Source: a plasmid
Strand: one strand, 5' to 3'
Assembly: GCF_054482595.1 (NCBI RefSeq)
Contig: NZ_JBTHVH010000001.1
Length of the DNA: 64,000 nucleotides
Position 1 is the stretch's first letter; each line of letters begins with the position of its first letter. Under the pieces are notes generated by a model, which was not told the DNA's origin, did not search any database, and saw nothing but the letters and a program-made list of their open reading frames with translations. The position numbers and the translations under genes were made by a program. Below, in pieces: positions 1,942-59,121 of this stretch.

Positions 1942-2124
1942 TATTTTTAAGTCGCGAATGCTATCTTTTTGCATCATATTGACCTTTTAATCGTTCAGGC
2001 TTATAGTTTCGCCGTCGTAGCAAATTCTGCGACCGGGTTTAGCAGCCTGAATGATTGTGCGGACAGCCGCAGATATCCGATATTGCGGTATTTTTGTGTC
2101 CGTAAAACTGCGTTACGCCCAAAT

Positions 2125-2205
2125 TATGGTGGGGCGTGATGGGGAGGCTTCGGCCTGCTGGTTTCACAATCGCCAGTCTGCTAACCCCGTCACGTCCTGC
2201 CACCT
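2125..2205 (+). ncRNA. c4: c4-like antisense RNA of immI module A (approximate boundaries)
   Basis: Lies between target-like site a1 (GATTGTG, 2053-2059) and a2 (GATTGTGA, 2237-2244, overlapping the icd Shine-Dalgarno); contains the complementary element TCACAATC (2164-2171). Confidence 0.45.
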
Positions 2206-2254
2206 GTTTAGCAGCGGGTAGCAGGTTGTTAAACCTGATTGTGAGGCCGTAACT

Positions 2255-2476
2255 ATGGTTAATGCCAATCCTTGCGCACGCCAAGAATTCATCTGGCGTT
2301 TCTATTCCTGCAAAAAACACCACTATCACTTCGTCATCGCAGCAACAGAAGACGAAGCACGCTCTCAATTGCCTGATGGCCCCTGCATTTTTACTGCCCG
2401 TTTTTCAACTAACTCGCGCAATTCACTTAGTTACTGGAACCTCCCCTTCTCTTCCGACGTTCAGGGGGTTTTATGA
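2255..2476 (+). CDS. icd: Icd-like small protein (73 aa), translationally coupled to ant
   Basis: 73-aa ORF whose stop overlaps the ant start (ATGA); position and size match P1 icd. Confidence 0.65.
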   Translation: MVNANPCARQEFIWRFYSCKKHHYHFVIAATEDEARSQLPDGPCIFTARFSTNSRNSLSYWNLPFSSDVQGVL

Positions 2477-3516
2477 AAAAACCTCTCGTCACCCGTAATG
2501 ACATAGCCGAAGCGATCGCACTGCATACTGCCTGTATGCCGACACGGGAGATCCCCGGCGCAATTGCCAACTATTTCATGATAACCAGACGTTTTTATAC
2601 CCGAACAGATAAGGCTGTGATCAACAGGCTACTGATAGCCGAGATCAGGGATTATTTGATTGAACAAGGACGTCTACGTTACGCAACGGTGGCAGCAGAA
2701 ATGAGAAAGGAGGCACATAGAATGACCAGTAATAATTTGAATGTTAAAAAACCAGCATCTGTTGCTTCAGCTACGCCATCACCAGCTGTGAATGTTATCT
2801 CCAACACTGGAGACACAATCGACAGCCAGACGCTGTTAAAGATGGTCAATGAAGCGCGTAAGTTATGTGGGGAACCAGAGGTTCGGAACAACAAATTCAT
2901 CAAAAAAATACTCGACGAATTAGAAGGTGAGGACGGTTACACAAAAAGTGCAACCGTGCCGCCAGGTGGCGGTACGCCTATGGTTGTCATAACCATGACC
3001 TACAAACAAGCCCTGCGAGTCGCCGCGCGCGAGTCAAAAGCAGTCCGCCGTTCGCTGATCGACAAACTGGAAGAATTGCAGCAGGCAAACTCCCCTGCCC
3101 CATCGATCCCCCAAACATTACCAGACGCTCTACGCCTGGCTGCCGAGTTGGCAGAACAGAAAATGCAGTTGGAACAACAGCTGGTGGCCGCAGCCCCTAA
3201 AGTCGATTTTGCCGACCGGGTATCAGCGGCTAATGGAATCCTGATCGGGAACTTTGCAAAGGTCGTTGGACTTAAGCAAAACGCCCTTTTCTCATGGTTG
3301 CGCCAGAACGGCATTCTCATGGCTTTTGGTGCGCGCAAAAACGTACCGCGCCAGCAGTACATTAACGCCGGGTATTTCACGGTGAAAGAAGTGGTGCTGG
3401 ATGATGAAAATGGCTACCAGATACGGCTGACGCCCCAATTAACGGGTAAAGGCCAGCAGTGGTTAACTCGCAAGCTACTTGATGCTGGTTTGTTAAAACC
3501 AGTAGCAATAGGTTAA
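2473..3516 (+). CDS. ant: antirepressor Ant (C-terminal KilAC-type domain)
   Basis: 347 aa; C-terminal PKVDFADRVS...GNFAKVVGLKQN...YFTVKE motif block typical of phage antirepressors; sits downstream of c4/icd and upstream of kilA as in P1. Confidence 0.75.
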   Translation: MKKPLVTRNDIAEAIALHTACMPTREIPGAIANYFMITRRFYTRTDKAVINRLLIAEIRDYLIEQGRLRYATVAAEMRKEAHRMTSNNLNVKKPASVASATPSPAVNVISNTGDTIDSQTLLKMVNEARKLCGEPEVRNNKFIKKILDELEGEDGYTKSATVPPGGGTPMVVITMTYKQALRVAARESKAVRRSLIDKLEELQQANSPAPSIPQTLPDALRLAAELAEQKMQLEQQLVAAAPKVDFADRVSAANGILIGNFAKVVGLKQNALFSWLRQNGILMAFGARKNVPRQQYINAGYFTVKEVVLDDENGYQIRLTPQLTGKGQQWLTRKLLDAGLLKPVAIG

Positions 3517-3524
3517 CAAAAGAA

Positions 3525-3555
3525 AAAACCTGCCAGCAAACTGGCAGGTTTCTGA
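3525..3555 (+). terminator. rho-independent terminator after ant
   Basis: Hairpin CCTGCCAG-CAAA-CTGGCAGG followed by TTTCT. Confidence 0.6.
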
Positions 3556-3591
3556 GCAGATCGACCAACCCGATCTGGATCGAGTCAGAAA

Positions 3592-3610
3592 AATTTGCTC
3601 TAATAAATTT
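3592..3610 (+). promoter_or_regulatory. C1 operator-like site upstream of kilA-repL (Op53 analogue)
   Basis: ATTTGCTCTAATAAATTTC. Confidence 0.6.
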
Positions 3611-3679
3611 CGTTTTCTAAGTGCAAAGAATCACCATTTCGAGCTGGTGATTGAAGGTTGATGCAAATTTGGAGAAAAA

Positions 3680-57009: not shown

Positions 57010-57321
57010 ATGAGAAAGAATTTCAACATCGACGGAAAATATGTAGTGCTGTCAGTGAGCACTAATATTCAGTCGCCAGCCGTCATTGTCACTGTAAAGC
57101 TGAGCGATAGAATGCCTGATATTGACTCAATATCCGTTGCGTTCCCTGTCAGAAGTATGCGTAGTGCTGAACATTTCGTGATGAATGCCACCGAGGAAGA
57201 AGCACGGCGCGGTTTTGCTAAAGTGATGTCTGAGTTTGGCGAATTTTTGGGGCACGTTGACAAAGCCCTCTCAATCAGTTCAGCAAGATCCAAAGCATTA
57301 ACAGCTTCCATGATGAAATAA
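57010..57321 (+). CDS. hypothetical protein (103 aa) downstream of cre
   Basis: ORF preceded by an operator-like site and followed by a hairpin. Confidence 0.45.
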   Translation: MRKNFNIDGKYVVLSVSTNIQSPAVIVTVKLSDRMPDIDSISVAFPVRSMRSAEHFVMNATEEEARRGFAKVMSEFGEFLGHVDKALSISSARSKALTASMMK

Positions 57322-57347
57322 AAAAAGCCTGGCAAGGAGCCAGGCTG
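57319..57347 (-). terminator. rho-independent terminator for the minus-strand icd-C/ant-C transcript
   Basis: GCCTGGC-AAGGA-GCCAGGC followed by T-run on the minus strand. Confidence 0.55.
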
Positions 57348-57452
57348 CACAAAAGAGCGGGTTTGTATTCCGCATCCAATCAATCAAGAAGGAGTATAGC
57401 ACACAGGTACTGACGTGAAAAAATATGATTCGCGATAAACAAAATACCTATC

Positions 57453-57469
57453 ATTGCTCTAATTGAGCC
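57453..57469 (+). promoter_or_regulatory. C1 operator-like site
   Basis: ATTGCTCTAATTGAGCC. Confidence 0.45.
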
Positions 57470-57549
57470 GCAGTTTTTGTCAACTACGAAGACGTGGCCA
57501 TTACCTACTCCTTTGAAATCATTGGCGACCATTAGGCCGCCTTTTTTAA

Positions 57550-58602
57550 TCATTCAGCCGCCACCGGTTTTAACAAGCCAGCATCAAGTAGCTTGCGAGT
57601 CAACCACTGCTGGCCTTTACCCGTTAATTGGGGCGTCAGCCGTATCTGGTAGCCATTTTCATCATCCAGCACCACTTCTTTCACCGTGAAATACCCGGCG
57701 TTGATGTACTGTTGGCGCGGTACGTTTTTGCGCGCACCAAAAGCCATGAGAATGCCGTTCTGGCGCAACCATGAGAAAAGGGCGTTTTGCTTCAGTCCAA
57801 CGACCTTTGCAAAGTTCCCGATCAGGATTCCATTAGCCACTGATACCCGAACGGCAAAATCGACTTTAGGGGCTGCGGCCACCAGCTGCTGATTTAGCTG
57901 GTGGGCTTTCTGTTCCAGAAGTTGCTTTTGTTCAGCCAGCTCGGCAGCCAGGCGCAGAGCTTCGGGGAGTGTTTGGGGGAGCACTGGAGAAGCAGTGTTA
58001 GCCTGCTGCAATTCCTCCAGTTTGTCGATCAGCGAACGGCGGACCGCTTTTGACTCGCGCGCGGCAACTCGCAGGGCTTGTTTGTAGGTCATGGAGATAG
58101 TTTCAGATGTTGTGTTGTTTAATTTTTGCACTACGAAAATTTCGTAGTACTCACCATCCAGTTCATCCTTAACTCTGGCAATAAAATCATTATTGCGAAC
58201 TGGTTTTTCGCTGCATAATTTCCGCGCTTCATTGACCATCTTCAACAATGTTTGGCTGTCTATTGTGTCGCCGCTGTTGGGGATAACATTCACGGCTGGT
58301 GCAGTTGTTCCCAAAGACTTCGTAACTACAGCGTCTGGTTTGCTTGCTTTCATTCTGTGTGCCTCCTTGCGTGTTTCGGCTGCGACGGTTGCGTAATTCA
58401 GATGCCCCTGTTCGAGCAGGTATTCACGGATATCGGTTAGCAGAATGCGGTGAACCGCGTGTTTGTCCTTTCTCCGGTAAAGTTGTTTGGTGATCATGAA
58501 GTAGTTGGCAATAACGCCTGGTATATCCCTGGTACTGATACAGGCAGTGTGCTGTTCAATTGCCTCGATCATCTCTTCACGGGTGACTAATGACGTTCTC
58601 AT
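57550..58602 (-). CDS. antirepressor paralogue, module C
   Basis: 350 aa; N-terminus as ant-B, middle and C-terminus as ant-A. Confidence 0.7.
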   Translation of the reverse strand: MRTSLVTREEMIEAIEQHTACISTRDIPGVIANYFMITKQLYRRKDKHAVHRILLTDIREYLLEQGHLNYATVAAETRKEAHRMKASKPDAVVTKSLGTTAPAVNVIPNSGDTIDSQTLLKMVNEARKLCSEKPVRNNDFIARVKDELDGEYYEIFVVQKLNNTTSETISMTYKQALRVAARESKAVRRSLIDKLEELQQANTASPVLPQTLPEALRLAAELAEQKQLLEQKAHQLNQQLVAAAPKVDFAVRVSVANGILIGNFAKVVGLKQNALFSWLRQNGILMAFGARKNVPRQQYINAGYFTVKEVVLDDENGYQIRLTPQLTGKGQQWLTRKLLDAGLLKPVAAE

Positions 58603-58820
58603 AGTCCCTCCTGAGCAGAAGCGTTAACAGGGAGGCACCAGTAACTGAGAGAATTGCGCAAATCGGTAGAAAAGCGGGCAGAGAAAATACAGGGAGCATC
58701 CGGAAGCTGAGAACGTGCCTCATCTTCTGTTGGTGCGATAACGAAGTGATAGTGACGTTTCTGGCAGGAGTAAAAGCGCCAGATAAATTCAGGGCGTGCG
58801 CAAGGATTGGCATTAACCAT
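58599..58820 (-). CDS. Icd-like protein, module C
   Basis: 73 aa; overlapping stop/start with ant-C. Confidence 0.6.
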   Translation of the reverse strand: MVNANPCARPEFIWRFYSCQKRHYHFVIAPTEDEARSQLPDAPCIFSARFSTDLRNSLSYWCLPVNASAQEGL

Positions 58821-58867
58821 AGTTACGGCCTCATGTACAGGTTTAACAACCTGCTATCCGCTGCTAA

Positions 58868-58950
58868 ACGGGTGGCAGGACGTGACGGGGTTAGCAGACT
58901 GGCGTACATGAAACCAGCAGGCCGAAGCCTCCCCATCACGCCCCACCATA
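58868..58950 (-). ncRNA. c4-like antisense RNA of module C (approximate)
   Basis: Co-linear with c4-A; specificity element TCATGTAC complementary to GTACATG(A) target-like sites at 58829-58842 and 59014-59027 (minus-strand sense). Confidence 0.45.
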
Positions 58951-59121
58951 ATTCGGGCGTAACGTGGTTTTACGGACACAAAAATACCGCAATATCGGAT
59001 ATCTGCGGTTGTCCGCATGTACATTCAGGCTGCTAAACCCGGTCGCAGAATTTGCTACGACGGCGGAACTATAAGCCTGAATGACAGGAAGATCAATAGT
59101 CTGGCGTTCAATGGTAGTATT

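Follow-up and report, generated by a model that had tools for sequence, protein, structure and literature searches.

The stretch of DNA analyzed here (64,000 nucleotides [nt] of contig NZ_JBTHVH010000001.1, RefSeq assembly GCF_054482595.1; hereafter the window) comes from a P1-like phage-plasmid and contains three complete c4-icd-ant1/ant2 cassettes, referred to as modules A, B, and C. In phage P1, synthesis of the antirepressor Ant depends on the translation of icd, and the notes of the P1 record agree with this. Each cassette consists of a C1 operator, a leader with the short elements a1 and b1, a c4 antisense RNA with the complementary elements a' and b', a second copy of the elements (a2 and b2) in front of icd, and the icd and ant reading frames. 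The features are as follows (positions in the window; aa, amino acids; E, E-value).

Module A, plus strand:
1924-1940, C1 operator (Op51/Oc4 homologue), core TGCTCTAATAAATT at 1926-1939, aligning with Oc4 of P1 and P7
1979-2007, candidate sigma-70-like promoter TTGACC-17-TATAGT (homologue of P1 P1c4/P51b), by consensus match only, at a position that fits the P1 annotation
2001-2059, leader with a1 TTAGCAG (2039-2045) and b1 GATTGTG (2053-2059), Rfam c4-a1b1 RF03163 at 54.6 bits, covarying with a'/b'
2122-2207, c4 antisense RNA with b' TCACAATC (2164-2171) and a' CTGCTAA (2178-2184), Rfam RF01695 at 69.6 bits
2208-2246, target with a2 TTAGCAG (2208-2214) and b2 GATTGTGA (2237-2244), the latter overlapping the icd Shine-Dalgarno GAGG (2243-2246)
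2255-2476, icd, 73 aa, phrog_1426 (E = 1e-46), stop overlapping the ant1 start
2473-3516, ant1, 347 aa, with the in-frame ant2 start at 2722; phrog_63 anti-repressor Ant (E = 2e-104), Pfam ANT/KilAC PF03374 at residues 234-336

Module B, plus strand:
52218-52234, C1 operator, core 52220-52233
52309-52388, isrK-type leader with a1 TTGGCCT (52335-52341) and b1 GTCTAAGG (52351-52358), Rfam isrK RF01394 at 60 bits (gathering score 50)
52365-52388, terminator-like hairpin and U-run, from a terminator scan
52412-52499, c4 antisense RNA with b' CCTTGGAC (52456-52463) and a' AGGCCAA (52471-52477), Rfam RF01695 at 75.9 bits
52504-52545, target with a2 TTGGTCT (52504-52510, one G-U pair) and b2 GTCTAAGG (52535-52542), the latter overlapping the icd Shine-Dalgarno
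52554-52775, icd, 73 aa, phrog_1426 (E = 1e-45)
52772-53890, ant1, 372 aa, with the ant2 start at 53021; phrog_63 (E = 1e-131), Pfam ORF6N at residues 116-202 and ANT at 260-361

Between modules B and C, minus strand:
53923-54774, c1 repressor gene, an open reading frame (ORF) of 283 aa, annotated as 'phage repressor protein C1' in a 99.5%-identical plasmid

Module C, minus strand:
59160-59189, second promoter-like site TTTACA-18-GATAAT, abutting the operator, by consensus match only
59138-59154, C1 operator with one mismatch, TAATAGATT, core 59139-59152
59068-59096, promoter-like TTGATC-17-TATAGT, by consensus match only
59016-59074, leader with a1 TTAGCAG (59030-59036) and b1 GTACATG (59016-59022), Rfam c4-a1b1 at 55.5 bits
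58868-58953, c4 antisense RNA with b' TCATGTAC (58904-58911) and a' CTGCTAA (58891-58897), Rfam RF01695 at 71.7 bits
58829-58867, target with a2 TTAGCAG (58861-58867) and b2 GTACATGA (58831-58838), the latter overlapping the icd Shine-Dalgarno
58599-58820, icd, 73 aa, phrog_1426 (E = 5e-46)
57550-58602, ant1, 350 aa, with the ant2 start at 58353; phrog_63 (E = 3e-112), Pfam ANT at residues 238-339

A sequence-only reading of the window had placed three leader-icd-ant units at 2036-3516 (plus strand), 52326-53890 (plus strand), and 57550-59040 (minus strand), and all three were recovered there. In each, the order is c4, icd, ant1; the icd stop overlaps the ant1 start, and the ant2 start is internal and in frame and has its own Shine-Dalgarno, with a conserved AGGAGGCACAnAGAATG ahead of it in all three modules. 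The three Icd proteins belong to phrog_1426 and the three Ant proteins to phrog_63 with the Pfam ANT/KilAC domain (PF03374), and all of the ORFs are intact. The segments described as c4-like are C4 RNAs, all three scoring above the Rfam gathering score of 45, and the short elements quoted for them proved exact: GATTGTG at 2053 and 2237 with TCACAATC at 2164 in module A; GTACATG at 59016-59022 and 58832-58838 (minus strand) with TCATGTAC at 58904-58911 in module C; and GTCTAAGG at 52351 and 52535 with CCTTGGAC at 52456, including one G-U pair, in module B. The CTGGTT...GCCAGT flanks are conserved among the copies, as had been noted. When the whole window was scanned for the C1-operator core TGCTCTAATAAATT with up to one mismatch, eight cores were found against 0.02 expected by chance, and one of them lies upstream of every module (1926, 52220, and 59139 on the minus strand), in agreement with the claim that each cassette sits next to a C1 operator. 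The operator of module A was in register with the annotated Oc4 of P1 and P7 in the alignment.

Recognition in these cassettes is two-part: b', in the second hairpin loop of c4, faces b1 and also b2 over the icd Shine-Dalgarno, and the junction element a' faces a1 and a2. The single module-specific element of the sequence-only reading corresponds to b, which does differ in all three modules, but the second element, a/a', which is common to A and C, had been overlooked. According to the annotated records, P1 has a = TTGACAG and b = GTTAGTG, and P7 has a = TTAGCAG and b = GATTGTG. In modules A and C, a' CTGCTAA pairs with TTAGCAG, and in module B, a' AGGCCAA pairs with TTGGCCT (a1) and, through one G-U pair, with TTGGTCT (a2); A and C therefore differ only in b, whereas B differs from both in a and b. 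The 77-nt core of the module A c4 is identical to that of P7 c4, which had also been missed, and judged by its elements module A has exactly the P7 specificity in both a and b. Module C, read in the same way, combines the P7 a element with a b element absent from P1 and P7. Alignment of the leaders and folding of the c4 candidates, as the earlier reading had suggested, placed a1, b1, a', b', a2, and b2 in register with the annotated P1 and P7 sequences, and the c4 RNAs of P1, P7, A, B, and C shared the same predicted minimum-free-energy architecture (-34 to -38 kcal/mol): a long closing stem and two hairpins, with b' in the second hairpin loop and a' single-stranded 3' of b' (in the predicted fold of module A, b' lies in the hairpin loop and a' in the junction). 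The upstream a1/b1 duplicates match RF03163 in modules A and C and RF01394 (isrK) in module B. When the window was searched for the bipartite target pattern a-N(3-40)-b, each pattern occurred only in its cognate leader, twice per module, against a chance expectation of about 0.02 by our own estimate. A conserved GGTAGCAG located just 3' of a2 (2215-2225, and at the equivalent place in all P1-scaffold leaders) resembles a partial P7-type a site; it gives a P7-type a' a computed duplex of -9.3 kcal/mol, even on the P1 target.

The differences among the modules are concentrated in the recognition elements and are compensatory. Across the 245 nt of the A and C leaders there are 18 differences, of which 12 are compensatory changes (4 + 4 + 4) in b1, b', and b2, which together span 23 nt, leaving six for the remaining 222 nt (Fisher p = 2.6e-10). 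Together with the Rfam matches, this covariation bears out the interpretation of the three units as P1/P7-type c4-icd-ant cassettes with module-specific compensatory changes, the signature of c4. For a wider comparison, a pattern scan of IMG/VR (120 stretches), P1, P7, and fetched plasmids yielded 42 distinct leaders, 25 on the P1 scaffold and 17 on the isrK-type scaffold. On the P1 scaffold, a'/a2 and b'/b2 formed standard pairs in 375 of 375 cells (100%), with 85 double-sided changes; none of 500 shuffles reached that pairing, and partners slid by 1-3 columns paired in 29-49% of the cells. On the isrK scaffold, 97.9% of the cells paired for a2/b2, again with many double-sided changes, and 97.5% for a1/b1, the exceptions coming from one row with an alignment shift. 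The a1/b1 pairing on the P1 scaffold gave the same outcome as that of a2/b2, suggesting that the upstream sites are under the same constraint as the true target, which fits a role of a1/b1 as a decoy for c4.

The a and b elements reassort combinatorially. Two a types and six b types (GTTAGTG, GATTGTG, GTACATG, ACGAATG, ACTTACG, and GTTCAAG) were found on the P1 scaffold, in 11 of the 12 possible combinations, and the isrK scaffold showed ten (b',a') combinations, with one b' accompanied by three different a' and one a' by different b'. Specificity did not depend on genomic location: ACTTACG and ACGAATG were seen both at canonical immI and, in other genomes, at add-on sites. Specificities that are add-ons in some phages are the sole immI of others, a condition for an extra c4 to be of use against real rivals. 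Further c4 variants were seen at 1733-1820 of stretch L128 (pTA13-2, pacB|c1 position) and at 44618-44705 of stretch L131; they have a GCCGGTT...GCCGGT stem, a CGAAAGG tetraloop hairpin, and b' CCCTTTTGC and CCCTTTGAC, both with a' GTTCCAA. Because a CTGGTT-based pattern misses variants with this stem, the IMG/VR census under-counts c4 diversity. In one IMG/VR cassette (L047, IMGVR_UViG_2565956613_000015), b' CATTCGT fits its own b1, but b2 is the P1-type GTTAGTG, which matches the c4 of the other cassette of the same genome (L046). Both contigs start at the same base inside the leader, and this cassette is either an assembly chimera in a repeat or naturally cross-wired.

Only module A occupies the canonical position between sim and kilA-repL: it lies at the immI site, followed downstream by the C1 operator Op53 (core 3596) and kilA (3680). 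Modules B and C, also of the immI type, lie away from this position, B between pacB and c1 and C next to cre. The gene order of the surrounding region (51000-60500) is pacA, pacB, module B, c1, coi, cre, module C, an MBL-fold hydrolase gene, and mat. This 9.5-kb stretch is 99.5% identical to E. coli plasmid pYZMc17-1_100k (NZ_CP123256.1), which has exactly three cassettes over its whole 100-kb circle, and it was found at ≥80% coverage in 51 plasmid records from E. coli, E. albertii, E. fergusonii, and Shigella, which share the pacB-B-c1-cre-C block. The presence of three such cassettes in one replicon, noted in the sequence-only reading, is not peculiar to this replicon: dozens of plasmids have this arrangement, some with four cassettes. 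With the conserved 3' end of ant as the query, 1002 places were found in 665 plasmid records; in an evenly spread sample of 60 of these records, 35, 19, 5, and 1 had one, two, three, and four places, respectively, meaning that about 40% of the sampled P1-like plasmids carry two to four cassettes. P1-scaffold c4 was present in 535 of 5,426 complete E. coli genomes, at up to five places per genome. Five phage records (RCS47, JL22, vB_EcoM-673R5, phi456, and Ro157c2YLVW) have two places each, indicating that multi-cassette genomes occur as phages too. E. albertii pEA50_2 and E. coli pE2865-1 have four cassettes each, and between them five places of insertion are occupied (immI, pacB|c1, the cre side, pro|lyz, and adjacent to ban). 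The cassettes at 69901-71153 of pE2865-1 (L133/L134, NZ_AP018809.1) and 47642-48951 of pEA50_2 (L125) mark the sites next to ban (dnaB) and between pro and lyz. The B-position ant of p2RM9974 looked truncated, with c4 alone surviving, but its 371-aa ORF proved intact, and the truncation came from an incomplete PLSDB gene table. The D6-like plasmid pAPEC201603 (L131/L132, NZ_CP127300.1) carries four c4-icd gates ahead of Rha-family and ORF6N payloads, two of which are truncated while c4 and icd persist; c4-icd resembles a transferable gate that can be placed before different payloads.

Specificities within one replicon were compared in 22 pairs of co-resident P1-scaffold cassettes from 14 replicons or genomes: 12 pairs differed in both elements, eight shared only a, two shared only b, and none had identical (a,b). 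Avoidance of identical pairs within one replicon is only suggestive. A stricter rule, under which b would never recur within a replicon, is false: two cassettes with b = CATGTAC, differing in a, are present in pAPEC201603 and again in pE2865-1. In pE2865-1, the cassettes form the chain (P7,P7), (P7,CATGTAC), (P1,CATGTAC), a series most readily explained if repression requires a match at both elements.

Taken together, these features suggest how the three cassettes would work. Each is arranged in the order C1 operator and promoter(s), leader with the putative decoys a1/b1, terminator-like hairpin, c4, a2/b2, icd, and ant1/ant2. By pairing with a2/b2, as is established for P1 and P7, c4 would occlude the icd ribosome-binding site and block icd translation together with the coupled synthesis of Ant; with icd translation blocked, no Ant would be made, and the C1 repressor, the presumed target of the Ant proteins, would remain active. 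Given the three different (a,b) addresses, each c4 would mainly gate its own Ant, and the three gates would be largely independent of one another, which the sequence-only reading had put more firmly as three mutually orthogonal, independently gated specificities. In a resident expressing all three c4 RNAs, incoming P1-like phages whose Ant cassettes are all covered would be silenced, whereas in an invader, any cassette unmatched by the resident c4 set would release Ant and break C1 immunity. Under this set-inclusion rule, added cassettes would widen both immunity and anti-immunity. We consider it likely that the replicon carries three self-contained immI-type cassettes with different addresses, each c4 mainly gating its own Ant, with this consequence for superinfection.

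Several observations weigh against this reading. The a' element common to A and C makes partial cross-talk between these two modules possible. Co-resident cassettes elsewhere sometimes share b (pAPEC201603 and pE2865-1) or a (eight pairs), and a crude null from pooled type frequencies puts the probability of finding no identical pair at about 0.04, a weak figure that is confounded by ancestry and insertion position. The folding energies of the leaders were not better than those of shuffled sequence (z = -0.6 to -1.1), so the terminator and decoy structure of the A and C leaders is assigned by homology only. A strict promoter scan found no consensus promoter for module B, the promoter of which is weak by consensus, and the Ant protein of this module, with its different middle domain (ORF6N), may not act on C1. 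Indeed, the inactivation of C1 by Ant1/Ant2, which the proposal assumes for all three cassettes, is most doubtful for module B.

The shared a element also allows A and C to be read as partly cross-repressing through a'/a2, leaving effectively two channels, A/C and B, an arrangement that we regard as somewhat unlikely. The a' and a2 elements are identical in the two modules, and their duplex, at -9.3 kcal/mol in every A/C combination, does not discriminate between A and C; the one heteroimmune pair that has been tested, P1 and P7, differs at a as well as at b. These energies were computed element by element, because whole-molecule duplexfold of c4 against target ignores the structure of c4 itself and was uninformative. 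For b'-b2, cognate duplexes had energies of -9.4 to -11.3 kcal/mol and non-cognate duplexes -1.6 to -4.4 kcal/mol, values that favor discrimination at b. Against the two-channel arrangement, b differs between A and C at four of seven positions, their cognate b'-b2 duplexes (-9.4 to -9.6 kcal/mol) are more stable than the non-cognate ones (-2.2 to -2.4 kcal/mol), and it is b2 that covers the Shine-Dalgarno. Moreover, nearly all a × b combinations exist on the P1 scaffold, and the co-resident chain of pE2865-1 fits a rule in which both elements are needed.

The ORF6N domain of the module B Ant, which is found in neither A nor C, raises a different question, namely whether the three Ants have different targets, with at least B inactivating the repressors of other prophages and coupling P1 induction to theirs. 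Relatives of the isrK type occur outside P1-like contexts in our sample, the homologous IsrK-orf45-AnrP unit of Gifsy-1 controls a prophage antirepressor (PMC4825925), and D6-like plasmids carry Rha and ORF6N payloads behind the same c4-icd gate. However, a P1 C1 operator stands at each of the three cassettes, the Ant1 N-extension and the C-terminal ANT domain (82-89% nucleotide identity in the latter) are common to the three Ants, and all 22 sampled B-type modules lie between pacB and c1 in P1-like backbones. We therefore judge divergent targets to be unlikely.

The cassettes are mosaic. The leader and c4 of module C are A-like (93% identity in c4), its icd (90%) and Ant1 N-extension (94%) are B-like, and its Ant middle domain is approximately 71% identical to that of A. 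This mosaicism would fit B and C being passive cargo, gained by recombination with other P1-like or lambdoid phages at hot spots and now redundant with immI or silent. Their sites of insertion lie in regions already described as variable among P1-like plasmids (PMC6906374), the truncated payloads of pAPEC201603 point the same way, and so does the weakness of the distinctness statistic. On the other hand, every ORF in the window is intact, each cassette has kept its four target sites perfectly complementary to its own c4, which is unexpected for a drifting element, and plasmids from E. coli, E. albertii, E. fergusonii, and Shigella have cassettes at these same positions; passive carriage is accordingly an improbable explanation. 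The possibility that B and C are mis-assembled duplicates of a single immI, raised by nothing more than the repetition itself, is already refuted by segment identities of only 53-94% with different recognition elements and Ant middle domains, by flanks that are different for each copy (B lies between pacB and c1, C between cre and the MBL hydrolase gene), and by the same architecture in many independently assembled complete plasmids.

P1/P7 heteroimmunity is a textbook example of immunity specificity set by an antisense RNA and is known as one cassette with two alleles. The present data point to a much larger, combinatorial set of specificities and to routine stacking of two to four cassettes in plasmids that often carry resistance genes. 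Our preferred reading of three separately addressed cassettes can be extended, tentatively and with slightly less than even confidence, to P1- and D6-like phage-plasmids in general, which would share a population-wide two-digit RNA address code (at least two a × six b types on the P1 scaffold and at least ten (a,b) combinations on the isrK scaffold), with both elements needed for recognition, up to four or five stacked cassettes, and the set-inclusion rule for superinfection. If such a code exists, a phage would grow on a lysogen unless the resident c4 set covers all of its cassettes, and the resulting arms race would favor gaining cassettes and changing specificity through coordinated triple substitutions. 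If the set-inclusion rule is true, it would account for which P1-like plasmids of E. coli, Shigella, and Salmonella coexist, displace one another, or induce one another, make the outcome of superinfection predictable from sequence, and provide natural orthogonal small RNA-target pairs or RNA repressors for synthetic circuits.

Other features of the window include kilA (3680-4480, plus strand), the product of which is Ant-like by eye in its C-terminal part and which has its own C1 operator (core 3596) and no c4 gate. Three tRNA genes (23859-23931, 23937-24009, and 25817-25889, all on the plus strand) are typical of P1-like genomes. Past mat, at the hot spot of P1 res/mod, lie ORFs of 696 aa (61815-63905, minus strand) and 146 aa (61341-61781, minus strand); neither had an NCBIfam or PADLOC match, and the 696-aa ORF also had no Pfam match. 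They may be uncharacterized defense cargo. In the closest plasmid, this site is occupied by a SIR2-family gene.

The closest known system is the immI operon of P1 and P7, which Citron and Schuster reportedly described in 1990 and 1992 as a c4 antisense RNA followed by icd and ant1/ant2. As annotated in NC_005856, it resembles the modules in its gene order, in the c4 fold, in the pairing of a'/b' with a1/b1 and a2/b2, in the position of b2 over the icd ribosome-binding site, in the upstream C1 operator, and in the nesting of ant2 in ant1; module A matches P7 c4 exactly and lies at the canonical site before kilA. Unlike the single cassette of P1 or P7, there are three here, with B (pacB/c1) and C (beside cre) at other sites, and C has a new b, whereas B has a new a and b, an isrK-type leader, and an Ant containing ORF6N. 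Module B has the layout of the IsrK-orf45-AnrP locus, i.e., an isrK match, a terminator-like site, a small ORF (icd), and then ant. In the Salmonella prophage Gifsy-1, IsrK, a short leader RNA, acts in trans to switch on translation of the antirepressor (Hershko-Shalev et al. 2016; PMC4825925), which suggests that the a1/b1 leaders act as c4 decoys. The Gifsy-1 locus shares with module B an isrK leader ending in a terminator, a C4-type RNA, a small coupled ORF, and an antirepressor, but it has been modeled as alternative mRNA structures rather than as a c4 antisense RNA (PMC4825925), and it is chromosomal, lambdoid, single-copy, and without a C1 operator. In the immI region of P22, likewise a secondary immunity region, a small antisense RNA (sar) limits the translation of ant (PMC12197685), and Ant is an antirepressor that inactivates the prophage repressor, as in the c4 cassettes. 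In contrast to c4, sar is cis-encoded and fully complementary to its target, with no two-element loop recognition, no icd-like coupled ORF, and an unrelated sequence. In ColE1 RNA I and R1 CopA, a few loop nucleotides of a small RNA set mutually non-interacting specificity groups. The c4 RNAs are similar to these in that the loop defines specificity among otherwise near-identical elements, but RNA I and CopA control replication, define incompatibility, and occur as one system per replicon, whereas c4 specificities are stacked and control an antirepressor.

The c4 mechanism and its RNA families were already known (Rfam; PMC2864571; PMC12197685). An extra ant between pacB and c1 has been reported in RCS47 and pTZ20_1P, as has icd-ant in the RD-1 region of pSvP1 (PMC6906374), and the D6-like plasmid pYU39_89 has a second c4 and icd region (PMC6799933). 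These are the same extra cassettes at the same hot spots, and the reports list genes only. A full-text literature search, the coverage of which did not extend to Citron and Schuster or to Gilcrease and Casjens (2018), returned no analysis of multiple c4 specificities per replicon or of a × b combinatorics. In comparison with these systems, the mechanism is a known one, and the new aspect is the stacking of differently addressed cassettes in one replicon, which is common in nature.

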